This document shows positions 155-54,448 of a stretch of 64,000 nucleotides of DNA, piece by piece; the stretch's first letter is position 1; each line of letters opens with the position of its first letter. The position numbers and the translations under genes are program-made. The DNA comes from Escherichia virus TH40. The stretch lies in sequence record MT446411.1. One strand, given 5' to 3'. The notes beneath the pieces were generated by a model. The model was not told the origin of the DNA. It saw nothing but the letters and a program-made list of their open reading frames with translations, and did not search any database.

Positions 155-211
155 TTCAATCTCCTCAGTAGTTGATAGGGATAATATACAGCATTATCCC
201 TTTGTTGTACA

Positions 212-451
212 CTATTTTAATGCATCTTTCAGATAAATTTTGCGGAATTTGCGTTTTGTCTGACGAATCTGACGCTTAGTAGGTTTCACAGGAAAATCGA
301 AGAACTCTACGTATTCTTGTTCATAATCATTGTGGCCGACTGAAAGAACTAGTTCCCAGCTGCTTACGGTGCGTTGGATAAACATATTATGCTTACCAAA
401 AGATTTATTCCAAAAAGAACTAGGGGTAGGTTTCATTAATGCGATATTCAT
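212..451 (-). CDS. Hypothetical small protein (79 aa), basic C-terminus
   Basis: ORF track; tightly packed same-strand cluster downstream of gene 41 (T4 61.x-equivalent position). Confidence 0.45.
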   Translation of the reverse strand: MNIALMKPTPSSFWNKSFGKHNMFIQRTVSSWELVLSVGHNDYEQEYVEFFDFPVKPTKRQIRQTKRKFRKIYLKDALK

Positions 452-655
452 TTAAATTTCCTCAATGCGGGCATCATATTCAAAAACTTTATTGTCATTA
501 ACAAAGGCTTTAACCAGCGCATTATTCACTTCTGCATACTGCACTGTAACCCATTCAATCATATTTTGGTCACTAACATCCAGCGCGGTTTCTTTGGTAA
601 ACATATTACCATTTTCAAACCAACCAATAAACACTACGTTCTCTAATTTATACAT
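452..655 (-). CDS. Hypothetical small protein (67 aa); positional candidate for a Dmd (61.5)-like protein
   Basis: ORF track; position in the small-ORF cluster after gene 41; no motif evidence. Confidence 0.45.
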   Translation of the reverse strand: MYKLENVVFIGWFENGNMFTKETALDVSDQNMIEWVTVQYAEVNNALVKAFVNDNKVFEYDARIEEI

Positions 656-973
656 TTAGATTTCCTCACAAAACGCCCAGGCGGCGTGATAAACTGTGGC
701 GCCTTTAGTATCATTTAAACAAACCACGTCAACAGGTGCAATCACACGATAAAGACGGGGTTCTCCTCCATATGAGCGGGCTGCTCTTCCTGCATAGATA
801 CGGGCCAAACCAATATCTTCAGTAAAAAACACACGCCCTAAATTTTTCTTGCGCCCAACTTCTGACAGAACACCAGTTGCATCAGGAGGGCAAAGCATAT
901 TTTGGATTCCAGCATTAGAGCTTGAGCCATGATAATAAACTTTGTATTCCGCCTTGCAATCAATAGTTTTCAT
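656..973 (-). CDS. Hypothetical protein (105 aa) with an H-G-S-S motif
   Basis: ORF track; preceded by type-A promoter-leader at ~980-1010; motif YYHGSSS noted but unverified. Confidence 0.5.
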   Translation of the reverse strand: MKTIDCKAEYKVYYHGSSSNAGIQNMLCPPDATGVLSEVGRKKNLGRVFFTEDIGLARIYAGRAARSYGGEPRLYRVIAPVDVVCLNDTKGATVYHAAWAFCEEI

Positions 974-1002
974 TTTATTCTCCAGTAGTTGATAGGGTCA
1001 TT

Positions 1003-1022
1003 ATAACATAAGAAAAAGGGGC
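1003..1022 (-). terminator. Intrinsic terminator-like hairpin after gene 41 (GC stem GGGGC..GCCCC with flanking U-run on both strands)
   Basis: Forward sequence aaaaaGGGGCTGTAAGCCCCtttt read directly. Confidence 0.5.
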
Positions 1023-1044
1023 TGTAAGCCCCTTTTAAAATATT

Positions 1045-2484
1045 TTAAAATTTCATTTGAGCAGCAAGGTCATCCAGGTCGCTCCTGTTGACCCTGGTTT
1101 GTCGATTCATTTCGGCCTGGCGATTCATCTCACCGGTGGCTTCTTTAACCGTAGGGCCTTGTTTAGGAGCCGAATCATCATCAACCTCATACCAGCGCTG
1201 ATTACCTTTCTTAACACCCATCTTGAATTTATTATAGTAGTTCTTATCACCATAACGAGACTTAAGCTGTTTGATTAACTGCAGCCCCATTTGAGCGAAT
1301 TCTTCGGTCTCAACAACACCCAACATAAAGTCAGCCGTGTGAGCAATACCAAAGGATTCTGCAATGTCAGCCATATCAATCTCAGCTGCAACGTTCGCGC
1401 CTCTGGTCGTCTGTGCCGCAGTCCACAGGACCACATTTTTCTCGACTGCCAGGCCACGAAGTTCTTCTGCAACCATCTTAATCAGACCGTAACTGTTTTC
1501 GGTAAACGTTTTCAGTCTTGAGCTTGCACAGATTGCCAGGTAGTCAACAATAATCACATCCGGCACAAACCCTTGCTTCAGTTTGTACTCGTTCAGTAAT
1601 GCACGGAAAGTATCCGCATGAGCACCACCAGTTGGATATTGTTTTATCTTCAGAGTCCCGAGAGTCCCGGAAGCACGCCATTTTTCCATCTTAGCTTTAT
1701 ATTCTGCCCATGATATATGACCTTCATCAATATCATCCAGAGATACATCCAGCAAGTTGGCATCAATACGTTTGGCACATACTTCTTCGGCCATTTCCAT
1801 GCTTATATAAAGAACATTATGACCAGTCTGAAGATAGTCAGCAGCTAACGAACAAAGTCCAAGGGATTTACCGACATTCGTCCCGGCCAGTAAAACGTTT
1901 TCTGTGCCATACTCAACTCCACCCTTCGTGATTTTATTCAGGATGTTAATGCGGAACGGAACCTTCTTCGATTTGTTCAGATAAGTCTGGAATCGAGCTT
2001 CGTAATCGTTTAACCAGTCATGGCCCAGGGCAGAGTCAAAACAGATAGACAATGCATCACGCATGATGTCAGGGATAGCACCGATATCCGGGATTCGTTT
2101 ATCACGTTTATCTTTAGGAAGTTCGGCATTACTCTGGATTTCGATAATCCGGGATGTGGCATTAAACATCGCAGACTTCTGTACATATTTCTCGGTTTCT
2201 TTAACCAACCATTCCTGGTCTTCTGGAGTATCAACCAGGGCTCCTAAGAGTTTCTTTGTGCCTTCATATTCGACTTCAGAAAGGTCAGAACCGTCGAGCG
2301 CGATATCAAGTGCAGTCTTAGTTGGAACTGCTTGATATTCTTTTACATGTTCGTTAATCGTATTAAAAAGGGTCTTCGCTGGACCCTTTTCAAAATATGT
2401 GCTATTCAGATATGGCCAGACTTTAACAAAATATTCCTTGTTAAAGAGTAGCTGGGATAAAATAGTTTCTACCACTTCCACCAC
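1045..2484 (-). CDS. 41: Replicative DnaB-family DNA helicase (T4 gp41-like)
   Basis: 479 aa; Walker A GTNVGKS; N-terminus and overall sequence match my recollection of T4 gp41; synteny uvsX-40-41. Confidence 0.93.
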   Translation of the reverse strand: MVEVVETILSQLLFNKEYFVKVWPYLNSTYFEKGPAKTLFNTINEHVKEYQAVPTKTALDIALDGSDLSEVEYEGTKKLLGALVDTPEDQEWLVKETEKYVQKSAMFNATSRIIEIQSNAELPKDKRDKRIPDIGAIPDIMRDALSICFDSALGHDWLNDYEARFQTYLNKSKKVPFRINILNKITKGGVEYGTENVLLAGTNVGKSLGLCSLAADYLQTGHNVLYISMEMAEEVCAKRIDANLLDVSLDDIDEGHISWAEYKAKMEKWRASGTLGTLKIKQYPTGGAHADTFRALLNEYKLKQGFVPDVIIVDYLAICASSRLKTFTENSYGLIKMVAEELRGLAVEKNVVLWTAAQTTRGANVAAEIDMADIAESFGIAHTADFMLGVVETEEFAQMGLQLIKQLKSRYGDKNYYNKFKMGVKKGNQRWYEVDDDSAPKQGPTVKEATGEMNRQAEMNRQTRVNRSDLDDLAAQMKF

Positions 2485-2813
2485 CTCTTTTTCATTTTAA
2501 TCTTATCAATTTCATCTTGTATTTGCATTGTAACACACTTTTCTACATGCACTGCAAGCTCCGCTTTGCGGTCTTCAGAAGGGGTGCCGAAATCAACTGA
2601 AACTTTTCCAGATGGTTCAATTTTAATTCCGGTTACGTACACAATGTGATTGGACCCATCAGGGAGTGATAACAGAATTTCCTGCCGTACAGTTCCCATG
2701 GATTGCCGGATAATCTCCAAACTTTTTTCGTAGTAAGGTACAGAAGGAGCCTTAGCTCCCTCCGCATCTTTCTCGAAATTATCTAAATCAGATAAATCGA
2801 TATCATTCATCAA
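2469..2813 (-). CDS. 40: gp40-like head vertex assembly protein
   Basis: 114 aa ORF between uvsX and 41, the position and size of T4 gene 40. Confidence 0.6.
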   Translation of the reverse strand: MMNDIDLSDLDNFEKDAEGAKAPSVPYYEKSLEIIRQSMGTVRQEILLSLPDGSNHIVYVTGIKIEPSGKVSVDFGTPSEDRKAELAVHVEKCVTMQIQDEIDKIKMKKRWWKW

Positions 2814-17361: not shown

Positions 17362-17684
17362 TTCGCACCCTTAACAATTTTTAGGTCAACAAAACCTTTC
17401 TTGCGCTGGGACTTCATACGCTTGATGGCTTTGTCAGAAACTTCTTTGTTTTCACGTGGAAGCGGCAGGCCAAACGCTACTACATCAAATTCATTCAGGA
17501 TATACTGGACAAGGCTTTCACGAATACGCGCTTTACCCATTGTCTGACCTTCTGCAATAATCAGTTTCTGTACATCGCCTTCCCACTGGTCCAGAATCTC
17601 AGGGGTAACAAAACCAGATTTCATCAGAGTGTTAACTTTAGCAAATGCAAAATTAGCGATGATGTTAGTGATAGATGCAGTCAT
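17358..17684 (-). CDS. Hypothetical protein (108 aa)
   Basis: ORF track. Confidence 0.4.
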   Translation of the reverse strand: MTASITNIIANFAFAKVNTLMKSGFVTPEILDQWEGDVQKLIIAEGQTMGKARIRESLVQYILNEFDVVAFGLPLPRENKEVSDKAIKRMKSQRKKGFVDLKIVKGAK

Positions 17685-17757
17685 GATATATTCCTCAGTC
17701 TCATTAAATTAAAATTTTATTATCCTGGGGGTCATTATACCATGACCCCGTTGGTTT

Positions 17758-17955
17758 TTACTGCGCTTTAGCGCCTTTCCAACCTTCGTACATCAATGCG
17801 GCCGATAATAATATTGTTCCTGCACATTTTGAATAATAGAGATTCCAAAACCAGTTCAGAAAAACTTCATCATCAATACCTTGAGCTATCATATTTTCAA
17901 AGAACTGACGACGAGATTCAGCAATTCGCTGTGATAATTTAGATTCAGGATTCAT
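17758..17955 (-). CDS. Hypothetical protein (65 aa)
   Basis: ORF track. Confidence 0.35.
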   Translation of the reverse strand: MNPESKLSQRIAESRRQFFENMIAQGIDDEVFLNWFWNLYYSKCAGTILLSAALMYEGWKGAKAQ

Positions 17956-19483: not shown

Positions 19484-19719
19484 TCTTTCACCTTCATCAT
19501 TTTAGCAATAACACTATGGACAGCCTGGATTCGTTTGTCGAACTCAGACCCTTCAAGGCCCTTTTCAGTACTCAGGGCACCAATCATCACAAACAGCAAT
19601 CCAAATGGGATAACCAGGATTAAAAGGCACACAATAAACAGGGCAAATGTAATATTGGCCAGGATATCAGAAACAGCATTACGAAATTTATTCATATTTA
19701 CCCTTAATTGATTAACCAA
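19480..19719 (-). CDS. Hypothetical membrane protein (79 aa)
   Basis: ORF track; long hydrophobic stretch. Confidence 0.4.
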   Translation of the reverse strand: MVNQLRVNMNKFRNAVSDILANITFALFIVCLLILVIPFGLLFVMIGALSTEKGLEGSEFDKRIQAVHSVIAKMMKVKE

Positions 19720-19809
19720 GCATTGATAAGCACTAAACTATATTGTGAATAAAATTCTGGACCAAAATGAAAAATCATATCATTTATAGTATCCATAATA
19801 TAATTAAAT

Positions 19810-20280
19810 TTAATCATGTTTCCACACCCCATCGGTATTTGACCAAAGTCGCTGATTATCTGACCCTCGCCACAGTTTTTTGGTCGGAAGATTTTTATCA
19901 TACTTCCCATCAATAATAACATCAACATATTTAAGCATTTCTAGTTGTTTAATATCTTCAAACTTATATCCTGTCCACATCCAAATACTTTTATTTGGAT
20001 AAAGATTTTTAACAGTTTGAACCACAGAGTGAATAACCTCTCGGTTATCGGGATAGAGAGGGTCTCCTCCAGTTATAGTTAATCCTTCTATATAATCATT
20101 ATTCAAACATTCAATTAATTGTTCTAGTGTTTCACCAGTGAATGGAACTCCATTTCTAGCATTCCATGTTGATTTATTATAACACCCTTCGCATTTATGC
20201 AAACAACCTGTGACGAAAAGAACGACCCTGCATCCAGGGCCATTAATAAAATCACAAGGATAAATTCTATCATAATTCAT
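19810..20280 (-). CDS. nrdG: Anaerobic ribonucleotide reductase activating enzyme (radical SAM)
   Basis: 156 aa; CxxxCxxC cluster motif (CLHKCEGC); directly downstream of nrdD. Confidence 0.9.
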   Translation of the reverse strand: MNYDRIYPCDFINGPGCRVVLFVTGCLHKCEGCYNKSTWNARNGVPFTGETLEQLIECLNNDYIEGLTITGGDPLYPDNREVIHSVVQTVKNLYPNKSIWMWTGYKFEDIKQLEMLKYVDVIIDGKYDKNLPTKKLWRGSDNQRLWSNTDGVWKHD

Positions 20281-22094
20281 TGGTGTTTAACCCTATGCAT
20301 GATTTCTTTATTTTTGCCGAGATTAAATCCGCGTTCGTTCGGATTTCCCAAATAACCGCAAGTTCTTCTTATTGTGTTCATCTTTTTAGGGTCAGTTTCT
20401 CCACAAATAGAACAAACAAATCCGTTTTCAGTAGGAGTCATTTCATGGGTACTTCCACACGTAAAACATTTATCTACTGGCATGTTAACACCAAAATAAT
20501 CTAAATGTTGCGCAGCATAATCCCATACAGCCTCAAGACCTTTTAAGTTATTTTTCATATCAGGAAGTTCAACATAAGAAATGTGACCACCTGTCGCAAT
20601 GAAATGATATGGAGCTTCGCGGGAAATCTTTTCAAACGGGGTGATATTTTCTTCTACTGAAACATGGAAACTATTAGTGTACCAGCCTTTATCAGTAACA
20701 TCCTTTACACTTCCATATTTTTCAGTATCAAGTTTACAGAAGCGATAACAAAGGTTTTCAGCAGGTGTAGAATACAAACTAAAAGCAAAACCGGTTCTTT
20801 CAGTCCACTGCTTAAGACGAGCATTCATTTTAGTTAAAATTTCTTGCCCAATATCACGACCGGCAAGAATATTCAATTCGTGAATACCAATGTATCCCAA
20901 AGACACTGAACTTCTACCGTTTTTAAATAACTCAATTATATCATCATCAGGTTTAAGACGAACCCCGAATGCACCTTCTTGGTAAAGAATAGGAGCAACA
21001 GTCGCTTTAACTCCTTTTAAAGAACTAATTCTACACATCAAAGCTTCAAAACACAAATCCATTCGCTCATTGAACAATTCGATAAATTTCTGTTCATTGA
21101 ACTGTGTTCCAATATAAGAATCTAACGCAATGCGAGGAAGATTCAGTGTTACAACGCCAAGATTATTACGTCCATCAAGAATTTCATTGCCAGTCGAATC
21201 TTTCCATACGCTCAAGAAACTACGACATCCCATTGGAGAAACAGGAATAGATGAGCCGGTGATAGCTTTATTGTTCTTAGCTGAAATAATATCAGGATAC
21301 ATTCTTTTGCTTGCACACTCTAGAGCAAGCTGCTTAATATCATAGTTCGGGTCGTCTTTATAAAGATTAACACCTTCTTCAACGAACATAACAAGTTTAG
21401 GGAAAATAGGAGTTATCCCATCGCGACCAAGACCTTTGATACGATTTTTCAGAATTGCTTTCTGAATCATTCGTTCAGTCCAGTCAGTTCCCGTGCCAAA
21501 CGTAATTGTCACAAAAGGCGTTTGCCCATTTGAACTAAAGAGCGTATTTACTTCATATTCATAAGCTTGGAATGCATCGTATACGTCTTTTTCTGTTTTA
21601 GATTGGGCATAATTCAATGCATCAGTGATTTGCCATTTTTCTGCATCTTCAATATGTTTTGCGTATGTACGTTTAACATAAGGAGAAAATACTTTGTCTA
21701 CATTAGCAAAAGTCGTTCCACCATATTGGTGAGAAGCAACCTGTGCAGTAATTTGTGCCATAATTGCAGTAGCAACACCAATTGATTTAGGAGTTTCAAT
21801 CTGCGCATTACCGAGCTTAAACCCGTTCTCAAGCATTCCTTTTAAATCTACTAAACAGCAATTAGTAAATGGAAGAGCAGGGGAATAATCAATATCATGG
21901 AAATGAATAATTCCACTTTCATGTGCTTTCATAATAAAAGACGCGACCATATTTTTGGCAATGTGTTTAGATACAATACCAGCCATAAGGTCCCGTTGAG
22001 TTGGAAAAACACGAGAATCTTTATTAGCATTCTCGTTTAAAAGGTCTTTATTAGTTTTATGAATCAATCCTTCAATTTCGTTTTCAATTGTCAT
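20277..22094 (-). CDS. nrdD: Anaerobic ribonucleoside-triphosphate reductase (class III)
   Basis: 605 aa; C-terminal glycyl-radical motif RTCGY and Cys-rich zinc site; uninterrupted reading frame. Confidence 0.95.
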   Translation of the reverse strand: MTIENEIEGLIHKTNKDLLNENANKDSRVFPTQRDLMAGIVSKHIAKNMVASFIMKAHESGIIHFHDIDYSPALPFTNCCLVDLKGMLENGFKLGNAQIETPKSIGVATAIMAQITAQVASHQYGGTTFANVDKVFSPYVKRTYAKHIEDAEKWQITDALNYAQSKTEKDVYDAFQAYEYEVNTLFSSNGQTPFVTITFGTGTDWTERMIQKAILKNRIKGLGRDGITPIFPKLVMFVEEGVNLYKDDPNYDIKQLALECASKRMYPDIISAKNNKAITGSSIPVSPMGCRSFLSVWKDSTGNEILDGRNNLGVVTLNLPRIALDSYIGTQFNEQKFIELFNERMDLCFEALMCRISSLKGVKATVAPILYQEGAFGVRLKPDDDIIELFKNGRSSVSLGYIGIHELNILAGRDIGQEILTKMNARLKQWTERTGFAFSLYSTPAENLCYRFCKLDTEKYGSVKDVTDKGWYTNSFHVSVEENITPFEKISREAPYHFIATGGHISYVELPDMKNNLKGLEAVWDYAAQHLDYFGVNMPVDKCFTCGSTHEMTPTENGFVCSICGETDPKKMNTIRRTCGYLGNPNERGFNLGKNKEIMHRVKHQ

Positions 22095-22564
22095 TTTAAA
22101 CTCTTTCTAAGCTGCTTCTTAAATGAAGCCATTAATTGTGTTTTTGTGTCAGATTCATTATAAGTCATACCGTTCAAAAGCATTTCCCGAATCATTTCTT
22201 CTTTCCCCAGACGGCCAAACTCTTTGGCTTTGTCTGTTACAAAATTGGGGTGAATATTGTTTTCGGTATAATCAGATTTCAGATAGACAAGCAAACTCTC
22301 CAACCATTCCAGGTAGTCAACATCACGACCTTTCAGACCCGAACGGCTGAACTTATGCTTCATTTGCCCTTCTGTTCCATTGCACAGATTGCATAGTAAC
22401 CCGCGAACCTTACCAGCTTTTGGCCCGTTCAATTCGTGGTCATGGTCAAGATGGTTGGCCTGAACATCAGAGTCCAAATCACGGTGGCAAATTGGACACT
22501 TACCAGCTTGTGCATCATAAAGTTTTTGTTTTTCTTCTTTGTATAATTTGCCAGTCAACAACAT
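22091..22564 (-). CDS. 49: Endonuclease VII (Holliday junction resolvase, gp49-like)
   Basis: 157 aa; CPICHRDL and HLDHDHE H-N-H/zinc motifs typical of T4 endo VII. Confidence 0.88.
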   Translation of the reverse strand: MLLTGKLYKEEKQKLYDAQAGKCPICHRDLDSDVQANHLDHDHELNGPKAGKVRGLLCNLCNGTEGQMKHKFSRSGLKGRDVDYLEWLESLLVYLKSDYTENNIHPNFVTDKAKEFGRLGKEEMIREMLLNGMTYNESDTKTQLMASFKKQLRKSLK

Positions 22565-25867: not shown

Positions 25868-25925
25868 AGTGTTCTCCTCATAAAGTAGGAATTCATTATA
25901 CTCCCTCCATCCTTGGAAGTAAACA

Positions 25926-26882: not shown

Positions 26883-27048
26883 TCATAATTGCCAAAGCAA
26901 ACCAAAGCAGAGGCCATACTAGTGTAATGAATACTGCATCATAGCTTGATTCAATTTCGATTGGATTCCAATCACCCGATTTATGAATGATAATGGTCGT
27001 CATGAATCCTAGCACAAAGTAAAGGAGAATAAAACCTACAATTTCCAT
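26833..27048 (-). CDS. Hypothetical small membrane protein (71 aa)
   Basis: ORF track; two hydrophobic segments. Confidence 0.35.
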   Translation of the reverse strand: MEIVGFILLYFVLGFMTTIIIHKSGDWNPIEIESSYDAVFITLVWPLLWFALAIMIVFWPIAKFYEKLFGL

Positions 27049-27132
27049 ATTAACCTACAATATTTGAGAATATAAGCCACAGAATACCTGTGGCAACGAA
27101 TACATAACCAAGAACGGCGAGCCATTCCATAA

Positions 27133-29223: not shown

Positions 29224-29269
29224 ATATACTAAATAAAAATACTTAATAAAACCATAAAGGAGAAAGTTT

Positions 29270-31245: not shown

Positions 31246-32048
31246 TATTCACCTCTTTCATAGTCTTCAATAAATTGCATAATTAAACGCTGATAATTGG
31301 ATTTAGGGTATCCTAATTTACTAATATGAGTACCAAAAGCTCCACGCTTTGGCCTATTTAATTTAAGCCATAACGAGTAAAGCAAATCATAATCTTGCCA
31401 CTGTTTTCCTATTCTTTGTTTTGCTTTAGAAGCATCAGATTGTCTCTTTTTAGTCTCTGGATTATTTAAAGATTTCTTAACAGCATTCGAATGACGTTCT
31501 CTAACATCTGGCCGTTTAAATGCTTCTTTAATCGCTTTAGAAATTTTCTCTTTAACTTCAGGACGGTTTTGGGCTTCTATTTGAACAGCCGACATTTTAT
31601 CCTTTATTTTGGGCAGACTCATAGTTATAGAGCGTTTGTTTCTATATTCTTTGGTCTTCCATATTTCTTTCATTGTATTCGAATGAATTTCTGAAAATTT
31701 TTCTCTAACTAATTGGTATCCCCTAGAAGTTAATTTAAGGTTTCTTCCCAGAGAATCTTCGCCGAAGTTATAAAATGACCACCAGGCATAAATTAATCCA
31801 GAAGAATCGGAATGAATTCTAGCTAGAAGCCAGTGTGCTATAAAATGTTCTCTAGCTGTCAACAGAACCAAATTATTAGGTTCATCACTCCCGCCAATAC
31901 ATGACGGGATTATATGATGGGACTCTGTATAAAAATTTAATTTGGATTTGTCTAATCCTCTAAGTTTACCTCTTTGGATTAGACTATCATAAAGCTTGAT
32001 ATAATTCATTATGAATTTGTTTTGTTCTCGAAGTGGATTACCGGACAC
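31245..32048 (-). CDS. HNH homing endonuclease with NUMOD-like C-terminal repeats (mob-like)
   Basis: 267 aa; HHIIP..GGSDEPNNLVLL..EHFIAHW HNH core; repeated RPEVKEK / RPDVRERH / NPETKKR modules; AT-rich. Confidence 0.8.
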   Translation of the reverse strand: MSGNPLREQNKFIMNYIKLYDSLIQRGKLRGLDKSKLNFYTESHHIIPSCIGGSDEPNNLVLLTAREHFIAHWLLARIHSDSSGLIYAWWSFYNFGEDSLGRNLKLTSRGYQLVREKFSEIHSNTMKEIWKTKEYRNKRSITMSLPKIKDKMSAVQIEAQNRPEVKEKISKAIKEAFKRPDVRERHSNAVKKSLNNPETKKRQSDASKAKQRIGKQWQDYDLLYSLWLKLNRPKRGAFGTHISKLGYPKSNYQRLIMQFIEDYERGE

Positions 32049-37890: not shown

Positions 37891-38349
37891 TTAGATATAA
37901 ATCACTTTTGTGCTAATTTTTCCTTCCAGACGATTAGAGTTAACAAACGCCATACGACAACACATGGTCGGAGACTTCCCAGGAAGAGCCGGGTTAACTG
38001 TCATTCCTAGCCATAAGTTCTTGTCTGTGATTTCCAGACGAAGTGGACGGTAGTTCACATTCGGGTCAATTTGTGCTTCAACTTCTGGAAGCGGTTCCAT
38101 TTTTAAGAATTCAACAATTTCTTTTACATGTGGTGTGATTTTTCCAAACAAGTCAAAAACATATTGTTCGTCAATTTCACGTTGGATTGCACGGTCCAAC
38201 AGGTGCGGACTGTACTTAATGAAGAATGCTTCAAGGCCTGCTTCTTTACAAGCCTTGTTGATAGCATTATTAATTTTGAGGAACTCCGTTTCAAAAATAC
38301 GACGAAGTTTATTGCGGCGAATGTAAACACTTGAATCGATAGTAGTCAT
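37891..38349 (-). CDS. regB: RegB-like sequence-specific endoribonuclease (start at internal Met MTTIDSS)
   Basis: Resembles T4 RegB as I recall it (..VYIRRNKLRR.., ..HLLDRAIQREIDE..); AAGGAG SD before internal Met; ORF track gives 37891..38406. Confidence 0.5.
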   Translation of the reverse strand: MTTIDSSVYIRRNKLRRIFETEFLKINNAINKACKEAGLEAFFIKYSPHLLDRAIQREIDEQYVFDLFGKITPHVKEIVEFLKMEPLPEVEAQIDPNVNYRPLRLEITDKNLWLGMTVNPALPGKSPTMCCRMAFVNSNRLEGKISTKVIYI

Positions 38350-40187: not shown

Positions 40188-40487
40188 TTAAAAAGAACCA
40201 GAGCCTTTAATTGTGTTCTGGCGACCTTTATTTTCGAATTCAGAATGGTCGATTTCGTATGCTTGTGCTACGCCAAAGGCCTTTTTAACTTTAGCTAAAG
40301 AACCTTTAGTTGTAACAATATTAAAAGTATTGCCTTTGGTAAAATCAACCAAATCCACTTGCACCCCTTGTTTACCAAGGCTTGCTACAATAGCATCAAC
40401 ATATTGTTGGTCTAAATTGCCTTGAACCCCAATTTGAAATGCTTTAGGAACTTTGGCTTCTGTGATAAATTCTTGATATGTTTTCAT
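40188..40487 (-). CDS. Internal-protein-like (capsid-targeting N-terminus MKTYQEFITE)
   Basis: 99 aa; N-terminal 10 residues match the T4 IP capsid targeting sequence MKTYQEFIAE. Confidence 0.65.
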   Translation of the reverse strand: MKTYQEFITEAKVPKAFQIGVQGNLDQQYVDAIVASLGKQGVQVDLVDFTKGNTFNIVTTKGSLAKVKKAFGVAQAYEIDHSEFENKGRQNTIKGSGSF

Positions 40488-40500
40488 ATTGTTTCTTTAA

Positions 40501-40815
40501 TCAAGCTTTAGGGAAATCGCGCAAAAATGCATCATAAAGTTTATTACCAATGCGACGAAATGCTTTTGCTGCATGAACGTTATCTGGGTTTGCAATTTTA
40601 ATCTGCATTACATGACTACCAGCCCATGATTTAGCTTCGTCATAATAACCTTTAATTTCTTTAATAGTCTTGCGTTTTCCACCAGGACCATCAACAGTAA
40701 TTTTCCACGAACCAGTGCTTGTTTCACTTGGTGGGGTTAACTGTTCAATCCAGACATAACCACCTTCAACACGTTGTTGAGTAGATTCAGTAATAAATTC
40801 TTGATAAGTTTTCAT
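40501..40815 (-). CDS. Internal-protein-like (start at internal MKTYQEFITES)
   Basis: ORF track gives 40501..40854; conserved CTS begins at the internal Met. Confidence 0.6.
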   Translation of the reverse strand: MKTYQEFITESTQQRVEGGYVWIEQLTPPSETSTGSWKITVDGPGGKRKTIKEIKGYYDEAKSWAGSHVMQIKIANPDNVHAAKAFRRIGNKLYDAFLRDFPKA

Positions 40816-40863
40816 TTTATATTCCATTGTTTGGTTGATAAAATCATTATACAACCTTTTTAG

Positions 40864-41280
40864 TTAAGCGTACACAGCTTTCCCATAGTATTTGTACCAG
40901 GTAGGCTTTTGAGAAATTTTCTCATTCAGTCTGGCTTGACTGATTTCAATTGACCAGATTGATGGTTGATAATCATTCTTCCATTCATCAGGAATATCAT
41001 TTAAATCTTGGGTAGAAATATCTTTTATATTAAACCCTCGCTTTAAACATTCAGCAATAAGTTCTTGATGACGGTTTTTAAGGAACAAAAGCTTATCATA
41101 AAAGAAGGTGACATGACCAGTCCCTAAAAGAAAAGATGATGGGATTTTAAAGTCAGACACCTTTTTACCATTTTGTACATGCTTACGAACAGCACCAAAC
41201 ACGCGAGGAAGCTCACGATATTCAGCCATAAGGTGTTGGTCAGCAAGTTCAGATACCAGGGTTAAATTAATGCGAGTCAT
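40864..41280 (-). CDS. denV: Endonuclease V (pyrimidine dimer DNA glycosylase, DenV)
   Basis: 138 aa; N-terminus [28 protein letters not shown] and most of the length match T4 endo V as recalled. Confidence 0.88.
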
Positions 41281-41287: not shown

Positions 41288-41336
41288 CTCCGTAGTTGAT
41301 AGGGTCATTATAACCCTATCGTTTGGAGATGTAAAC
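41288..41336 (-). promoter_or_regulatory. Type-A early promoter-leader cassette upstream of denV (with GTTTACA -35)
   Basis: Forward ctccgtagttgatagggtcattataaccc...gatgtaaac read directly. Confidence 0.45.
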
Positions 41337-41824
41337 TAATAAGCGTCAAAAGTTCCAGTACGGAAAGTTTCAATAACTCGTTTGGCCCGGTTCGGAGTCT
41401 GGACTTTATACCATCTTGAGTCCGCCAGTTCCTTAGCAGCAGCTTCCCATGATTTAGCCTTGAGCAATCGCATACCCTTAGGAAAACCAGCAACACCAGC
41501 TACACCCATTTGGAATACCATATTAATGAGTGCGCAACGACGAACTTCATCCAGTACATCATAAACAGGTTTTAAGACAGGATGTTTCAAGATTCCAGAT
41601 TTAGCTTTTTCGACCGAACGATTAAACAATGTTTCGGCTTCGTGCTGGGTTATACGGCCATTACAGACGCGACCCATGAGCTTATCGAGCTCGGCACGAG
41701 CAACATCTTTCGATGGGTTCTTAGTTATCAGTTGTCCGATACCAATGGTCCAATAACCTTCGGTATCTTTATACAAATCCAACTTACAACCTTCATCTAT
41801 GCGTAACATTTCGAATATATTCAT
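41336..41824 (-). CDS. e: T4-type lysozyme (endolysin e)
   Basis: 162 aa; [25 protein letters not shown].. closely resembles T4 lysozyme. Confidence 0.93.
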
Positions 41825-45065: not shown

Positions 45066-45168
45066 AATATTTTCCTCATTAGTTGACGAGATAATGATAC
45101 TACGTTTCTTTAGGCTTGTACACTAAATTTCTGCGCATAAGTCCTCCTATCACATCCTTGTGATTAAA

Positions 45169-45396
45169 TTATTTTCCTAACGAAATACGAGTAGGTTTTT
45201 TACCGAAATATTCTTCATAGGAACCATCTAAACGGCCCGCTTTAGACCGACAGTACGAATCATACTTTTTGTAATAAGTCAACTCTGTATTGTAACGTGG
45301 ATGTCTATCAGCCATAATAATACTTAACGGCCAACCTTTGGCGTAATCACGAAGACCATTTATTTTACGAATATATCTTTTCTTTAATTTTAACAT
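45169..45396 (-). CDS. Hypothetical basic protein (75 aa)
   Basis: ORF track. Confidence 0.4.
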   Translation of the reverse strand: MLKLKKRYIRKINGLRDYAKGWPLSIIMADRHPRYNTELTYYKKYDSYCRSKAGRLDGSYEEYFGKKPTRISLGK

Positions 45397-45614
45397 GAGC
45401 TCGGATACCAGATTTTACCATCCGGGTGAGCAACAAAGGTGCGTCCAGCTTCTTCACCATAACAAGAGCTATTCAACCAGTCTTCAAGACGAACTTCACC
45501 ATCATAATCGTCGAGCTCAATACCGAAATCTTGGGCAGAAGCCATATCTTTAACTTTCTTATACAGCGCAGCCAGTTCAAGAGCTGCTTTTTCTAATTCA
45601 TTAATATCAGACAT
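45390..45614 (-). CDS. Small protein, member of W-x-S-S-x-x-C C-terminal family (ends WYPSSC)
   Basis: 74 aa; C-terminal motif shared with the three following ORFs. Confidence 0.45.
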   Translation of the reverse strand: MSDINELEKAALELAALYKKVKDMASAQDFGIELDDYDGEVRLEDWLNSSCYGEEAGRTFVAHPDGKIWYPSSC

Positions 45615-45623
45615 TTTTATTCC

Positions 45624-45821
45624 TTAGCATTCGTAAGAGGAGGACACCCAAGAGGTACCACTAATAGTAATACAACCGTTATAAAGCGTGATATGTCGTT
45701 CTAGGTCACGAACACCGTCGATATAGATATCAGCTTCTTCTCGTTCTTCTTTACAAATCTGGATAACGTTTTCAATAGCTGCGGCTGCAGTACGGATTGC
45801 ACAATCTAATTCACGAGACAT
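45624..45821 (-). CDS. Small protein, W-V-S-S-S-x-E-C C-terminal family
   Basis: 65 aa; ends SWVSSSYEC; 3' nucleotide block conserved with neighbours. Confidence 0.5.
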   Translation of the reverse strand: MSRELDCAIRTAAAAIENVIQICKEEREEADIYIDGVRDLERHITLYNGCITISGTSWVSSSYEC

Positions 45822-45830
45822 AATAATTCC

Positions 45831-46112
45831 TTAACATTCAGAAGAGGAGGACACCCAACCACCTTTTTCCAGGTCAGTTGTATAGTCATGTTGGTTAACG
45901 ATAGCGTATTGGGCTTCACCGTAGTTTTCCCAATGAGCAAGGTCAGCTTTCAGGGCGCCAGGAGAATAATAGTCACCGCCCATACCGCGAGCAGGGTATA
46001 TATTAAAATGAGTCTCATATTTGTTTGCAATTTCCTCGGCACGACGAATAGCTTTATGGATATCATTTACTGCGTTGGCCAGTTCTTTATTTTTACTGTA
46101 ATCGTTCATCAT
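45831..46112 (-). CDS. Small protein, W-V-S-S-S-x-E-C C-terminal family
   Basis: 93 aa; ends GWVSSSSEC. Confidence 0.5.
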   Translation of the reverse strand: MMNDYSKNKELANAVNDIHKAIRRAEEIANKYETHFNIYPARGMGGDYYSPGALKADLAHWENYGEAQYAIVNQHDYTTDLEKGGWVSSSSEC

Positions 46113-46121
46113 ACCATTTCC

Positions 46122-46412
46122 TTAACACATCTCAGAAGAGGAGACCCAAGCACCAACGGTAACAACACCATTTTCAACCCGACCGCCATTGGCTTCAATA
46201 TGATGGGTAAACCATTCAGAGCATTCATAACCAACTGGATGATATGTACGGCCGGTGCCGTAATCACCAGTGCTGAATTCGATACCATATTCATCTGCGA
46301 TTTCTTCACAGTGTTTTTCAATTTCAGAGGTCTTATTTAGAAGAGAATAGATAGCTTTTTCTGCAGATTTCTCATCATAATACTTGGGGATAGCAATTTC
46401 AATTTTATTCAT
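46122..46412 (-). CDS. Small protein, W-V-S-S-S-x-E-C C-terminal family
   Basis: 96 aa; ends AWVSSSEMC. Confidence 0.5.
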   Translation of the reverse strand: MNKIEIAIPKYYDEKSAEKAIYSLLNKTSEIEKHCEEIADEYGIEFSTGDYGTGRTYHPVGYECSEWFTHHIEANGGRVENGVVTVGAWVSSSEMC

Positions 46413-47681: not shown

Positions 47682-48275
47682 TTACTTAAGTGAATTGATG
47701 TATTCTTCAATGTCAGCGGATGTGGTATCCACACCGACCTGCGGGCCTTTGAAGGTTTCAACACGCATCAGAGTGTCTTCAATATCAATCTTAGTCAATG
47801 CAGCGATTTCAACAACATCATCTGCAGTCGCAATACCCAGGGCAGATACCTTACGAGTTTCGCGGATGTATTCCAGTTTAACAGCTAGTTCCTGACGAGA
47901 ATCATCCAGCTCTTTAACTTTCAATTTAATTTCATTACGCATTTCAACATAATCATCTGCCTTCTTACGAAGTTGTTTAGCAGTGCGACGATACAGAAGA
48001 CCCAGTTTAGCATGGACTTGCACATCTGCTCCATCAGCAATCAGTTTACGGATTTCACGCTCTTTTGAAGCAGCGAGCTGGTCTTTTTCATTCGCTAACT
48101 CGCGGATGCGTTTTTCTTCATTAACAGACTTAACGTGGGCAGTCTGGAGCTCAGTAATCTTGTCAATCAGGGTAGAAGCCGCTTTGGTATACTGGTCTTC
48201 AATAGACAGGTTTTGTGCCATTGCAGTACCCAGTTTGGAGCGGATGAATTCAACAAGTTTCTTTAAAGTATTCAT
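47682..48275 (-). CDS. Hypothetical coiled-coil protein (197 aa)
   Basis: ORF track; heptad-rich, charged. Confidence 0.45.
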
Positions 48276-48351
48276 GGTATTTCCTTCAGTTGGTTAATGT
48301 TTTATTATCCAGGGAACATACTATCATGTTCCCGTTAAAGCGTACACTGAT

Positions 48352-48657
48352 TTAGATTTTATTTTCCTGCACACCATAATACAGTTCATCAGATACAATA
48401 TTCAGGATGTGGCGAACATATTCATCATGGTATTGACAGTCAAAATCAAATGCAACAGTAGTTTCCGCTTCACGAGTGAATTTAACTTGCACATTCAGGT
48501 GATTAGTAACGTGAGTTAATTTATCAGTAAAGAACTCTTTTGCTACCGCCTGCTGGACTTGCACTTTGAACTTGGTGTTGCGAATCATATTTTCAGCAGA
48601 TGCGAAATTACCAGTTTTATCAAAGTCAACAAGCGCCAGGTTGATGATGAATTTCAT
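48352..48657 (-). CDS. Hypothetical protein (101 aa)
   Basis: ORF track; type-B leader upstream. Confidence 0.45.
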   Translation of the reverse strand: MKFIINLALVDFDKTGNFASAENMIRNTKFKVQVQQAVAKEFFTDKLTHVTNHLNVQVKFTREAETTVAFDFDCQYHDEYVRHILNIVSDELYYGVQENKI

Positions 48658-49171: not shown

Positions 49172-49245
49172 TATTATCCCGTTTGTTTATTTGGTAACTC
49201 AGTATGGGATAATTATACACTATCCCACCTGGAAGTAAAACACTT
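49172..49245 (-). promoter_or_regulatory. Type-B early promoter-leader cassette
   Basis: Forward cccgtttgtttatttggtaactcagtatgggataattatacac read directly. Confidence 0.45.
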
Positions 49246-49758: not shown

Positions 49759-49805
49759 TACTTTTTGAAGAAATATTAAAAATAAACCCGCCGGAGCGGG
49801 TTTGA

Positions 49806-51084: not shown

Positions 51085-51160
51085 TGGTCGAGACAGTAGG
51101 AATCGAACCTACGACCCAGGACTTAGAAGGTCCTTGCTCTTCCTTCTGAGCTATGCCTCG
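51085..51160 (-). tRNA. tRNA-Arg (anticodon UCU)
   Basis: Manual fold of reverse complement: 7-bp acceptor CGAGGCA/UGUCUCG, anticodon loop CUUCUAA, T-loop UUCGAUU, encoded CCA. Confidence 0.7.
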
Positions 51161-51293: not shown

Positions 51294-51367
51294 TGGTGGC
51301 CCTGGGTGGAATCGAACCACCATCCAGCGATTATGAGTCGCTCGCTTGACCGTCCAGCTACAGGGCC
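51294..51367 (-). tRNA. tRNA with CAU anticodon (Met or lysidine-type Ile)
   Basis: Manual fold: acceptor GGCCCUG/CAGGGCC, anticodon stem-loop AGCGA-CUCAUAA-UCGCU, T-loop UUCGAUU, encoded CCA. Confidence 0.7.
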
Positions 51368-52486: not shown

Positions 52487-52492
52487 TTTATT

Positions 52493-52543
52493 CTCCTCAG
52501 TAGTTAATGGGATAATTATGCACTATCCCATTCAAAAGTACAC
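52493..52543 (-). promoter_or_regulatory. Type-A early promoter-leader cassette
   Basis: Minus strand reads GTGTAC -17 nt- CATAAT TATCCCATTAACTACTGAGGAG; seen directly. Confidence 0.5.
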
Positions 52544-52777
52544 TTATTTTTTACGGAAAATTGATTTATACTGTTTAGCCCATTTCTCGATAACTTCTGC
52601 CGGACCCTGGATAACAAAATAGTCCCCAAACTCTTCACCGCCGAGCTGACCGTAATTATCTAAGGCGTCGCGGAGAGTTCCATAAGGCATTTCGCCCATT
52701 TTATCTTTCTTGCCGGTGTAAATGAATTGCACTTTAACATCAGCAGTTTCATTAATAAATTCTTGATAAGTTTTCAT
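52544..52777 (-). CDS. Internal-protein-like (CTS MKTYQEFINE)
   Basis: 77 aa; T4 IP-type capsid targeting N-terminus; GGAGA SD. Confidence 0.65.
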   Translation of the reverse strand: MKTYQEFINETADVKVQFIYTGKKDKMGEMPYGTLRDALDNYGQLGGEEFGDYFVIQGPAEVIEKWAKQYKSIFRKK

Positions 52778-52778
52778 G

Positions 52779-52830
52779 TTGTCTCCAGTAGTTGATGGGA
52801 TAATTATACTGCAGTTATCCCAGCGCGTAT
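52779..52830 (-). promoter_or_regulatory. Type-A early promoter-leader cassette upstream of an ip-like gene
   Basis: Forward ctccagtagttgatgggataattatactgcagttatccc read directly. Confidence 0.45.
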
Positions 52831-52832
52831 AC

Positions 52833-53075
52833 TTATTTTAAGTCTTCCAGACGTTTTTTCATCTTGGTACCATTCTTAGCAATTTCGCCTGCATCAGAAC
52901 AAAGAGCAAGGAGAGCTTTAACTTTACCCTGGTCGCCTTTAAAAGATGATGCATCTACAGAATCAGCAAGTTCTTTGATGCGAGCAAACAGACGCTCTGC
53001 TTCAGCAAGGGCTTGACCAAGTTTAACTTCCATACCATGAGAAGATTCATTAATAAATGTTTGATAAGTTTTCAT
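52833..53075 (-). CDS. Internal-protein-like (CTS MKTYQTFINE)
   Basis: 80 aa; CTS-like N-terminus. Confidence 0.6.
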   Translation of the reverse strand: MKTYQTFINESSHGMEVKLGQALAEAERLFARIKELADSVDASSFKGDQGKVKALLALCSDAGEIAKNGTKMKKRLEDLK

Positions 53076-53083
53076 TTGAAATC

Positions 53084-53356
53084 CTATTTTAGATAAATTG
53101 CGTATTTTTTATACCCAGCTGTCTCATGGCGGAGACCCTTGTCATTGGCAAAACGCTCAATGTTATTAATTTGGTTCTGGTCAAGTTCTGAAATGTCAAA
53201 CGCGAAAAAGTTGCGTTTGTTTCCAATTGTTATATGGTCAGTTAAGTCAATGCTATACAGGTGATTGATATTGTCAATCATAGCTTTGACTGCTTTACTA
53301 ATTTTTACTTCTTCATTCAGTTGGGACTCGTTGAAAAGTTCATTAAAAGTTTTCAT
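53084..53356 (-). CDS. Internal-protein-like (N-terminus MKTFNELFNE)
   Basis: 90 aa; diverged CTS; minus-strand TATAAATA late-promoter-like box at 53366-53373. Confidence 0.55.
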   Translation of the reverse strand: MKTFNELFNESQLNEEVKISKAVKAMIDNINHLYSIDLTDHITIGNKRNFFAFDISELDQNQINNIERFANDKGLRHETAGYKKYAIYLK

Positions 53357-53364
53357 AAGAAACC

Positions 53365-53697
53365 TTATTTATACAGTTTAGCTAGTTCTTTACGTCCGCG
53401 AGCAGACATAATGAATTGTTCATCACCAATTTTGAAATAAGCCATGCCGCCGTCAACAGCGATACCAATTTCTTTAGTACCTTCTTTACCTTTCCACTTG
53501 CCACCAGATTTTAGGACAGCTTCAACTGCAGCTTTGGAATATTTGGATGTTTGAAAACGTTCATTACCAATCTGAAAGAAAACACCATCTGCATTTTTGG
53601 ATAAACCAAATTTCAGAGAGCCTTCACTATCATCAATTGATTTAGTCTCATTGATGGCGGATTCGGCTAAAAACTCATTATAAGTCTTGATGTTCAT
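53365..53697 (-). CDS. Internal-protein-like (start at internal MNIKTYNEFLAE)
   Basis: ORF track gives 53365..53730; GGAG SD before internal Met; CTS-like N-terminus. Confidence 0.55.
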   Translation of the reverse strand: MNIKTYNEFLAESAINETKSIDDSEGSLKFGLSKNADGVFFQIGNERFQTSKYSKAAVEAVLKSGGKWKGKEGTKEIGIAVDGGMAYFKIGDEQFIMSARGRKELAKLYK

Positions 53698-53757
53698 TTT
53701 AACTCCGTTTGTTCGTTGGTGTAGGAACATAATACTGTGCCTACACTCATTTGTACA

Positions 53758-54448
<691 letters not shown>

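Follow-up and report, generated by a model that had tools for sequence, protein, structure and literature searches.

A composite intergenic cassette repeated on one strand of Escherichia virus TH40, probably an early promoter of the PeSL type

The window analysed here, 64,000 nucleotides of Escherichia virus TH40 (record MT446411.1), comes from a VR7-like T4-type coliphage of the genus Gaprivervirus. It contains 21 intergenic blocks, all of them minus-strand copies of one composite cassette that runs in each case to the start codon of a gene. The order of elements is upstream stop codon, A-tract, G-TGTACA (-35), 17 bp, TATAAT, C-rich discriminator, A(+1)T, leader, Shine-Dalgarno sequence (SD) and ATG, with the stop codon within -12..+15 nt of position -36 in 16 of the 21. 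The original prediction had counted about 17 copies and located 15 of them; the described block is present on the minus strand in all 15 ranges, and the count now extends to 21 with copies at 980-1040, 25876-25937, 40832-40889 and 53719-53771 and a further leader class, type C, at 17700-17754 and 48290-48354. Parts of the cassette recur well beyond expectation: CCCATCAACTACTGAGGAG has six matches at <=3 mismatches (0.02 expected), ATCAACTAC seven exact matches (0.54 expected) and the type B core CCATACTGAGTTAC five (0.04 expected). A loose -35/-10 pattern matches 22 times on the minus strand and three times on the plus strand, and a profile HMM trained on the copies gives 19 strong matches (E <= 1e-5), every one of them on the minus strand, as well as some weaker matches. 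A generic sigma-70 scan discriminates poorly, with 58 sites versus 48.9 in shuffled sequence.

Eight copies carry a type A leader. C01 (152..224; nhmmer E=6.5e-9), before a spackle (sp)-like gene, has its -35 GTGTACA at 212-206, the -10 at 188-183, a predicted +1 at 176 and the SD GAGGAG. The others are C02 (971..1040; nhmmer E=8.6e-6), after gene 41, with GGAGAATAAAATG; C03 (5218..5305), before imm, which has a hairpin in the spacer and lacks GGAG; C05 (18816..18896; nhmmer E=2e-13), before 55.6; C09 (34240..34340), before mobD.5, which matches the type A leader exactly; C12 (41278..41342), before denV; C19 (52484..52560), before trna.4; and C20 (52775..52845), before an ip6-like internal-protein gene, where VR7 has two copies. 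Type B comprises C07 (28566..28650), before nrdC.8, and C08 (29150..29236), both with GGAGAATAAAATG, together with C16 (48655..48743), C17 (49167..49247), which carries GGAUAAUAAAAUG, and C18 (49676..49805), which has a long leader. The two type C copies, C04w (17682..17763; nhmmer E=0.17), before 55.2, and C15w (48273..48354; nhmmer E=0.18), share the leader 5' end GGAUAAUAAAA; C04w has a weak -35, TGgTATAAT and GGATAATAAAA at 17715-17725. In the remaining six the promoter is shared with type A and the leader has diverged: C06 (25865..25937), before nrdC.4, with GAGGAGAACA as SD; C10 (38347..38422), directly before regB, with AAGGAGAUAAUC as SD; C11 (40813..40889), before an internal-protein gene (MKTYQEF...) and lacking GGAG; C13 (43794..43869) and C14 (45063..45139), both profile matches; and C21 (53695..53771), which has a leader of its own.

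The cassette logo (A-rich -42..-40, G(-36)T(G/T)TAC, 17 bp, TATAAT, C at -3..-1) is the consensus published for T4-type early promoters (Nolan 2006; Hinton 2010), and the genes downstream have early genes of T4 as their orthologues, among them regB, imm, denV, ip genes and trna.4. At the level of sequence, this agreement upholds the earlier identification of the repeats as early promoters. T4 early promoters such as that of ipI-trna.4 likewise combine G(-36)TTTAC with A-rich sequence at -40..-44, with C at -3..-1 and with a GT-rich run ahead of the -10; they also have the start region ATCAACTAC(T/G)GAGGAG, hairpins enclosing the -10 and the same downstream genes, whereas in TH40 position -34 is mostly G (GTGTAC). 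Start sites (for example 176, 993, 28598, 29187, 41300, 49205 and 52508, minus strand), the strength and early timing of the promoters, and cleavage by RegB are predicted by analogy with T4.

The division into two near-identical leader classes, as first proposed, holds for type B and for about eight type A copies but not for the other type A copies, and these diverged leaders together with type C imply at least three classes and, beyond them, a graded tail. The conservation that had been noticed downstream of the promoter is present and can be refined into three separate parts, namely the discriminator and +1 region, which early promoters are known to have and which is also the 3' arm of a hairpin, an initial transcribed block, and a RegB/S1-SD block. 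Since the type A leader and the hairpins occur in T4 itself, with the leader at the same trna.4 locus (89% over 47 nt), the type A start region is ancestral. Type B, judging from the sequence matches listed, is mainly a Gaprivervirus expansion, with 8-13 places per genome in that genus and mostly one (maximum four) in distant records; no Tequatrovirus record is among the matches listed in the Blast of the type B cassette. Conservation of the 5' leader blocks AUCAACUACU and AUACUGAGUUACC beyond the SD would also suit a structured cis-regulatory RNA, such as a riboswitch, protein operator or sRNA target, unrelated to RegB. We consider this very unlikely, as the only Rfam matches are two tRNAs, the leaders are just 19-44 nt long and predicted to be largely unpaired, the linker between the conserved blocks varies in length among orthologues, and the start region is also found in T4 promoters, which fits a role in the promoter and initial transcribed sequence.

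The regB endoribonuclease gene lies at 37891..38349 on the minus strand, behind C10 (Pfam REGB_T4 PF10715, E=3.7e-72, full length), and is the orthologue of VR7 gp120. T4 regB, too, has an early promoter of the typical kind, and RegB cuts the SD of its own message. The 11-nt RegB/S1 consensus GGAGAAUAAAA (Durand 2006, PMC1702504) has the general form GGAGRAYARAA in T4 early mRNAs, with GGAU variants (Durand 2006; Uzan & Miller 2010, PMC3014915). The original prediction had linked the GGAG of the SD to a RegB encoded in the window, and both points are borne out by the sequence, the cassette 3' ends fitting the whole 11-nt consensus beyond mere GGAG. All five exact minus-strand matches to GGAGAATAAAA fall in cassettes, each 10 nt from ATG; GGA[G/T]AATAAAA has nine matches (0.26 expected), and the eight on the minus strand are all in cassettes. 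Among cassette genes 12/20 have GGAG in the SD, versus 11/107 of the others (p=3.7e-6), and 8/20 have GGAGRAYA, versus 1/107 (p=7.7e-7). The predicted sites resemble those of T4 in placing exact 11-mers in the SD of early genes, in the GGAU variant followed by a strictly A-rich tail and in the GGAG of regB's own SD, and in the modelled leaders the candidate sites are mostly unpaired; unlike the T4 sites, 8 of the 21 cassettes have an SD lacking GGAG.

A hairpin is present in 18 of the 21 cassettes and absent from three, C10 and C14 among them; the folds range from -8 to -17 kcal/mol, with z down to -5.2. It surrounds the -10 box in 10-11 cassettes, including C01 (-11.5 kcal/mol, z=-2.8) and C07 (13 bp, -16.7 kcal/mol, z=-3.0); other folds are those of C04w (-15.6 kcal/mol, z=-2.7), C12 (-14.1 kcal/mol, z=-5.2), C15w (-12.4 kcal/mol, z=-2.2), C17 (-16.1 kcal/mol, z=-3.7) and C19 (-13.9 kcal/mol, z=-3.3). 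The -35 lies in the loop of GGGG/CCCC (C02, terminator-like), AAAGGGG/CCCCTTT (C05) or GGGGG/CCCCC (C16). The arms around the -10 co-vary, with a G.U bias on the sense strand; arm changes are compensated in orthologues of C13, and C21 has the compensated hairpin GTGTAGG/CCTACAC. When arm partners were swapped among cassettes, the observed complementarity was reached 0/2000 times. Internal pairs are G.U 35 times versus A.C nine times, and folding is better for the sense than for the antisense strand (p=0.002), in both cases among orthologous, non-independent sequences.

The original PeSL proposal would make these hairpins mainly intrinsic terminators or attenuators insulating the cassettes from upstream transcription, and the sense-strand G.U bias, which fits an RNA-level role, agrees with it. 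The PeSL papers report that the RB49/phi1 stem-loop reduced lacZ read-through as much as rrnB T1, and in TH40 a hairpin plus T-run is found in C02, C18 (a canonical terminator ahead of the cassette, at 49784-49803) and nearly in C09, which a strong terminator-type hairpin precedes. However, the 10-11 hairpins around the -10 have no U-tract: the sequence behind them, AUCAACUA or ACUGAGUU, contains 0-3 T within 8 nt. None of them is recognised as a terminator, and a classical terminator role is therefore unlikely for these. Moreover, T4-type early regions are read through into downstream genes (Hinton 2010). As the main role of the hairpins, termination thus seems to us improbable.

Recombination between copies left one exact and one probable recombinant. 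A three-way alignment with VR7 shows C17 to be an exact chimera of two neighbouring cassettes of that phage, with one gene deleted and the crossover inside the type B leader; in four relatives it gives overlapping alignments of 50 nt. C02 is probably, on sequence comparison, a recombinant of the same sort: exactly there, relatives have an extra gene with its own cassette and hence a cassette on both sides. Breakpoints also lie at 218 (C01) in four relatives, at 29223 in C08 (the -36 position) in 5/6, at 41333-41340 (C12) in TH44 and TH55, and at 52557 (C19) in four; C14 has replacement breakpoints at 45079 and 45128, and VR7 has a 664-bp insertion at the upstream edge of C13. Against six relatives, 14/81 breakpoints fall at cassettes, which cover 3% (p=1.5e-7 on a random-sequence baseline), but cassette junctions are not enriched over other gene junctions (10/20 versus 41/107, p=0.33), nor among gaps >= 40 nt (10/20 versus 13/22), so that a special recombinogenic role is not demonstrated. 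The suggestion that the repeats are recombination substrates is thus upheld by C17 and not by breakpoint frequency, and the rearrangement envisaged between the type B groups at 28.6-29.2 kb and 48.7-49.8 kb has no long-range counterpart in the six relatives.

The lack of breakpoint enrichment over other gene junctions, the retention of the type A leader at trna.4 in T4 and the ~22 of ~35 variable loci that have no cassette at either end would all suit ordinary, vertically inherited promoters and ribosome sites, alike through purifying or convergent selection for the best promoter, start region and RegB/SD sequence, with recombination incidental and as frequent elsewhere. That explanation is a serious though doubtful one, since it does not readily accommodate the C17 chimera, the doubled cassette of the relatives at C02, the leader-length variants AAACAAACGG and AAAACTGG, which are common to paralogues and differ between orthologues, or the many type B places in Gaprivervirus, which suggest duplication or exchange. 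A mobile element, MITE- or transposon-like or linked to homing endonucleases, might be suspected from dispersed copies adjoining variable genes, but all copies share one orientation, are fixed between stop and start codon and lack terminal inverted repeats and target duplications, while HNH-like and MobB-like endonuclease insertions sit at junctions without cassettes; it is extremely improbable.

We consider it very probable that the repeats are sigma-70-dependent early promoters of a VR7-like phage built as PeSL-type intergenic cassettes. The sequence anatomy, its statistics, the covariation and the recombinants are observed, whereas the activity and start sites of the promoters, cleavage by RegB and the function of the hairpins are inferred. 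Each cassette occupies the whole gap between two early genes, the upstream stop codon abutting or overlapping the -35. The A-tract would serve as an UP element, and G-T(G/T)TACA, the 17-bp spacer and TATAAT would recruit host RNA polymerase right after infection. From the predicted A(+1), behind the conserved C-rich discriminator, transcription would yield a short unstructured leader whose terminal SD, 10 nt from ATG, doubles as a putative RegB/S1 site (GGAGAAUAAAA or close variants), so that RegB made from C10 could inactivate cassette messages within minutes. Where the arms flank the -10, in about half of the cassettes, the hairpin could form only in read-through RNA from upstream, which it would most likely attenuate or provide with a protected 3' end. 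The copies would be alike through constraint on functional blocks and the ancestral type A start region, and their 20-60 bp of shared sequence would support homologous exchange, by which intervening genes are lost, gained or replaced from time to time.

T4 and ES12 have cassettes of this design, which has been described as PeSLs (promoter-early stem-loops) in RB49/phi1, PST/T4 and nt-1/KVP40 (Arbiol 2010, PMC2839356; Comeau 2014, PMC4122927); as it is already known in T4-like phages, the finding is real but ordinary. By sequence, the TH40 cassettes are PeSL-type: they share the composite motif of stop codon in an AT-rich tract (its position near the promoter is also in the PeSL description), early promoter, stem-loop, SD and start codon, a variable stem-loop position, often between -35 and -10 or over the -10, stems of G-run/C-run, proximity to small or variable genes, and exchange between neighbouring copies that deletes or inserts genes. 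They differ in their promoter, which is the T4-type GTGTACA/TATAAT where RB49 has a near-perfect TTGACA, in falling into three leader classes and containing an explicit RegB/S1 11-mer, and in breakpoints that are not in excess of those at other gene junctions; the PeSL papers did not cover Gaprivervirus. Lambdoid morons are similarly single genes that come with a promoter, and in some cases a terminator, of their own, but no conserved repeat flanks them and their insertion is by illegitimate recombination (PeSL papers). Shuffling cassettes have also been described at the T-even internal-protein locus (Repoila 1994, as cited in the PeSL papers). As far as that citation conveys, the likeness concerns a subset of TH40 cassettes, and the repeat differs in running into coding sequence: C11, C20 and C21 precede internal-protein genes sharing the MKTYQEF targeting peptide, and repeats of 37-55 nt over the MKTYQEF region flank the internal-protein gene indels.

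The original prediction described two classes of near-identical early promoter-leader cassettes recurring about 17 times upstream of minus-strand genes. The repeat is real, and every range proposed to carry the block does so, on the minus strand. A profile HMM built from 17 copies, three of them new to the list (25876-25937, 40832-40889 and 53719-53771), yielded 19 strong matches (E <= 1e-5), all on the minus strand; these include an additional copy at 980-1040 and recover the one at 49172-49245, which had been listed and lay outside the seed set. The HMM also gave two weaker copies (17.7 and 48.3 kb) that have a third kind of leader in common, type C, which reads CCC(C/T)(A/T)GGATAATAAAA..., bringing the total in the window to 21 cassettes, numbered C01 to C21 along it (the weak type C copies are C04w and C15w). 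The type A leader has six matches at <=3 mismatches against 0.02 expected, its core ATCAACTAC seven exact matches against 0.54, and the type B core CCATACTGAGTTAC five exact matches against 0.04; a loose -35/-10 regular expression matches 22 times on the minus strand and three times on the plus strand. Near-identity is a fair description of type B and of about eight type A copies but not of six others, which have the common promoter followed by a differing leader. Since the genes behind the type B cassettes match no Pfam families and have unrelated N-termini, gene paralogy does not account for the common cassettes.

VR7-like coliphages match the window at 90-95% identity over 75-90% of an 8-kb test piece, and VR7 is classified in the Straboviridae, Tevenvirinae, genus Gaprivervirus. 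Synteny with VR7 places the sp/dmd/gene 41 region at the start of the window, followed by gene 43, gene 55, nrdC, mobD, tk, vs and regB, then the internal-protein genes, e and denV, the tRNA region and finally genes 53-7; everything up to about 57.1 kb is read from the minus strand. All 21 cassettes lie on that strand, 5' of and co-oriented with orthologues of T4 early genes or small ORFs; the genes behind them include sp, imm, 55.2, 55.6, nrdC.4, nrdC.8, mobD.5, regB, ip genes, denV and trna.4.

Aligned on the -10 box, the 21 copies give a logo in which A-11 and T-7 are invariant and the -35 region has G-36 in 19, T-33 in 20, A-32 in 19 and C-31 in 18. An A-rich, UP-like tract precedes that region, with A at -42 to -40 in 14-18 copies; G-13 is found in 16 copies, and C at -3 to -1 in 15-18, with 1.4-1.8 bits, an information content equal to that of the hexamers. 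The resulting consensus has A at -42 to -40, then G-36, T-35, (G/T)-34, T-33, A-32, C-31 and A-30, followed by a 17-bp spacer with G at -16 and -13, TATAAT, (G/T)AT(C/T)CC and A(+1)T. The published T4-like early consensus comprises GTTTAC at -36 to -31, an A-rich tract at -40 to -44 and a GT-rich segment before -12, and C is preferred at -3 to -1 in the early promoters of RB69, RB49 and 44RR (Nolan 2006); such sites have been named "uber" UP/-35/TGn/-10 promoters with extra regions of consensus (Hinton 2010). The cassettes thus display the -35 box, G-36, spacer and TATAAT of a T4-type early promoter together with the UP-like tract and the extra consensus, and, at the level of sequence, their consensus is the published one. 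A generic sigma-70 scan was uninformative as a promoter test (58 sites against about 49 in shuffled sequences).

The +1 positions, at which unmodified host RNA polymerase would start about 7 nt past the -10 box directly upon infection, are predictions, and they imply leaders of 19-44 nt, each ending at an ATG. An upstream stop codon lies between -12 and +15 nt from position -36 in 16 of the 21 cassettes, a TAG stop itself providing the G at -36 in four, and the intergenic length is 48-83 nt in 16. With a stop codon near -36 and a leader that ends at the start codon, the cassette makes up the entire intergenic region.

The 3' block of the leader contains the Shine-Dalgarno sequence (SD), whose GGAG had been noted as the motif cut by the phage endoribonuclease RegB. 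The gene for this enzyme (37891-38349, minus strand; PF10715, E=3.7e-72) lies directly behind cassette C10; in T4, regB likewise has a typical early promoter and its own SD is cut by RegB (Uzan & Miller 2010). Efficient cleavage in T4 by RegB/S1 requires the 11-nt sequence GGAGAAUAAAA, in general form GGAGRAYARAA, and GGAU is also cleaved when a strict A-rich tail comes next (Durand 2006). Exact minus-strand copies of GGAGAATAAAA occur at five sites, all in cassettes (C02, C07, C08, C16 and C19) and each exactly 10 nt before the ATG. The motif GGA[G/T]AATAAAA has nine matches against 0.26 expected, and all eight on the minus strand are in cassettes; of these eight, the one in the SD of C17 and those near the 5' end of both type C leaders have the GGAU form. 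GGAG is present in the SD of 12 of 20 scored cassette genes as compared with 11 of 107 other genes (odds ratio 13, p=3.7e-6), or of 13 of the 21 cassettes when C01 (GAGGAG) is added, and the longer GGAGRAYA in that of 8 of 20 as compared with 1 of 107 (p=7.7e-7). In leaders modelled from +1, the RegB/S1 sites are mostly unpaired, with a mean unpaired probability of 0.5-0.9 in most and lower values in C01 and C14. The proposed link to RegB is therefore supported well beyond the bare GGAG, by the exact 11-mers, the enrichment and the presence of regB, and the 3' block of the leader is a predicted RegB/S1 target site, exactly as known for T4. The sole plus-strand copy of GGAGAATAAAA, at 27024-27034, is antisense to a small ORF of the minus strand within the gap at 27003-27133; the copy was rejected as a RegB leader site because no start codon follows it, and is probably a chance or antisense occurrence.

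A stem of at least 5 bp with at least three G-C pairs is present in 18 of the 21 cassettes, and its position varies. In C01, C04w, C07, C12, C13, C15w, C17, C19, C20 and C21, and weakly in C11, the arms flank the -10 box, the 5' arm lying in the spacer and the 3' arm covering the discriminator and the first transcribed bases. The -35 box sits in the loop of a GGGG/CCCC stem in C02, C05 and C16, the stem lies within the spacer in C03 and weakly in C06, and a canonical terminator stands just upstream of C09 and C18; C08, C10 and C14 have no qualifying stem. The hairpins that enclose the -10 box have folding energies of -8 to -17 kcal/mol and z-scores down to -5.2, and their arms co-vary (GGGATA/TATCCC, GATAGGG/CCCTATC, GTGTAGG/CCTACAC, GGGGTCAT/ATGACCCC, GGGAACAT/ATGTTCCC). 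When spacers were re-paired with the downstream regions of other cassettes, the observed complementarity was reached in none of 2000 permutations. Among 111 distinct cassette cores from seven Gaprivervirus sequences and one Tequatrovirus, which are not independent of one another, internal G.U pairs outnumber A.C pairs by 35 to 9, and the sense strand folds better than the antisense strand (p=0.002). The internal counts replace a tally that included terminal pairs (61 against 37), which is weak because extension of stem ends inflates G.U and A.C alike. Together, the covariation of the arms and the sense-strand bias indicate structure in the sense-strand RNA and, as the 3' arm covers +1, only transcripts reading through from upstream could form the -10-enclosing hairpin.

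None of the 10-11 hairpins of this kind is followed by a T-run, so that they are not classical terminators. A G+C-rich hairpin with a direct U-run, as expected of an intrinsic terminator, is found only in C02 and upstream of C18, and nearly so at C09; an Rfam scan of the whole window at the gathering score returned two tRNAs and no cis-regulatory family. We infer that the function of the -10-enclosing hairpins may be attenuation, 3'-end protection or some other role. They might act as a barrier at the 3' end, protecting the upstream cistron from decay after RegB has cut the SD 10-35 nt downstream, or they might take part in the shut-off of early promoters a few minutes post infection, a process whose mechanism in T4 is incompletely understood (Hinton 2010; Uzan & Miller 2010). 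The same type of hairpin is present in early promoters of both Gaprivervirus and T4-type (Tequatrovirus) phages. That it is a conserved RNA element in its own right, belonging to read-through early transcripts and not a by-product of the promoter sequence, we regard as a rather improbable reading. The co-varying, sense-biased -10 hairpin, also present in T4, is nevertheless the least ordinary element of the cassettes and offers a small lead on the insulation of early messages or the shut-off of early expression.

A blast search with the type B cassette found 380 places in 46 phage records, about 30 of which have multiple places. Most Gaprivervirus-like records have 8-13 each, whereas a few records of Morganella, Providencia and other coliphages have one to four; in one of these few the site is annotated "promoter". 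As judged from these matches, type B has expanded mainly within Gaprivervirus. At trna.4, the type A cassette is conserved in place across hundreds of Tevenvirinae genomes, T4 among them, and the T4 ipI-trna.4 spacer is GTTTACATAGGGTTTTAGCTGTGATACTATTACCCTATCAACTACTGAGGAGAATAAAATG. In the Tequatrovirus ES12, many promoters have a ATCAACTAC(T/G)GAGGAG start region together with compensated -10-enclosing hairpins, and the ATCAACTAC start region is likewise found in early promoters of T4 (73348-73694); compensated pairs from ES12 and this T4 region include ATAGGGTA/TACCCTAT, GATGAGGTA/TACCTCATC and CAAGACTA/TAGTCTTG. From the conservation at trna.4, T4 included, and the start region in ES12, type A is judged ancestral to T4-type phages.

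The closest described entity is the promoter-early stem-loop (PeSL), a composite promoter/stem-loop/SD/ATG motif that starts at the upstream stop codon, has its stem-loop mostly between -35 and -10 or over -10, and has been shown to recombine, giving indels and mini-circles (Arbiol 2010; Comeau 2014). In their sequence features the cassettes correspond to it: the composite order fills the intergenic space, a stem-loop lies by the promoter, and a gene deletion or insertion between two copies is found, exactly in C17 and probably in C02. The stem-loops of PST/T4 PeSLs are drawn just upstream of the promoter (Comeau 2014, Fig. 3 legend), whereas those in ES12 and T4 lie around the -10 box. Among the papers searched, none describes PeSLs in Gaprivervirus, which is not proof of their absence from the literature.

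The window was aligned to the syntenic 73-76 kb of six relatives (VR7, TH54, TH55, TH44, TH41 and TH22). All six are colinear with it, and the long-range rearrangement that had been envisaged between the type B groups at 28.6-29.2 and 48.7-49.8 kb is thus not seen. Breakpoint clusters lie <=10 nt from a cassette in 14 of 81 cases, the cassettes and their margins being 3% of the sequence (p=1.5e-7), and breakpoints often fall exactly at the -36 edge (218, 29223, 41333, 52557). Gene junctions in general are preferred by breakpoints, and cassette junctions are not enriched relative to other junctions (10 of 20 against 41 of 107 broken; Fisher p=0.33), nor are they among junctions with a gap of at least 40 nt (10 of 20 against 13 of 22; p=0.76). 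At about 22 of the roughly 35 variable loci neither end has a cassette, and the signature of PeSL recombination is found at two. At the first, four relatives have a 320-bp extra gene (VR7ORF146c) between two type B cassettes; the left part of C17 is identical to the upstream VR7 cassette and the right part to the downstream one, the crossover falling within CCATACTGAGTTACCAAATAAA. This makes C17 an exact chimera of two VR7 cassettes from which the intervening gene has been lost, a deleted form common to the window, TH41 and TH55. At the second, gene 41 and the C02 orthologue are separated in VR7, TH41 and TH44 by an extra gene that has a type B cassette of its own, and TH54 has a 569-bp insertion there, for which no flanking cassette was detected; the C02 of the window is probably a join within AAAGGGG-TGTACA and a second case of such recombination. 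Leader-length variants are common to paralogues and differ between orthologues, a pattern that fits exchange or slippage.

The original interpretation is essentially right, and the cassettes are known biology: T4-type early promoters, RegB/S1 sites in early SDs and PeSL-type cassettes. Their description charts 21 predicted early transcription units of a Gaprivervirus together with its likely RegB targets, in a genus often isolated for phage therapy and with many unannotated genes, and extends the PeSL design to it with one base-exact, cassette-to-cassette gene loss. That cassette junctions are no more prone to breakage than other gene junctions tempers the view of cassettes as the main engine of gene shuffling. 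The -10 hairpin could bear on the insulation of early transcripts or the shut-off of their expression.

Several other variable segments were observed. A plus-strand ORF at 29270-30016 (248 aa), opposite in orientation to the otherwise all-minus early region, encodes an Sf6-type tail needle knob domain (Phage_tail_NK, E=2.6e-32) with a weak collagen-repeat match; of the seven genomes compared, the window and TH54 alone have the 791-bp segment that carries it (29224-30016), whose insertion point coincides exactly with the -36 edge of C08. A 254-aa minus-strand ORF at 31245-32026 has a weak HNH endonuclease match, and the 771-bp segment 31256-32026 is found in none of the six relatives, joins its surroundings cleanly at gene boundaries and probably represents the insertion of a homing endonuclease. 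In VR7 and TH44, about 125 bp stand in place of the minus-strand genes nrdG (radical SAM activase) and nrdD (anaerobic ribonucleotide reductase), at 19696-22095. At 45390-46412 (minus strand), four small genes follow one another with 9-nt gaps, and a stop/SD junction recurs among them (TGTTAAGGAAT...ATG). In VR7 and TH54 a 25-nt repeat at 45605-45629 flanks an indel of 212 bp, a repeat-mediated gene gain or loss that involves no promoter cassette. Six internal-protein-like genes (40188-40815 and 52544-53697, minus strand) share the capsid-targeting N-terminus MKTYQEF / MNIKTYNEF, and breakpoints at 40783, 52731 and 52748 fall just past this peptide. Indels of internal-protein genes in VR7, TH54 and TH41 are flanked by a 37-55-nt repeat at 40446-40500, which spans the 5' end of the gene at 40188-40487 and its upstream junction. 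The segment 51081-51370, around the minus-strand genes for tRNA-Arg (tct; 51085-51160) and tRNA-Met (cat; 51294-51367), is replaced by about 730 bp in four relatives. Finally, VR7, TH55 and TH22 have a 655-bp insertion at 55811, absent from the window, whose VR7 version is a MobB-like homing endonuclease between genes 3 and 2.
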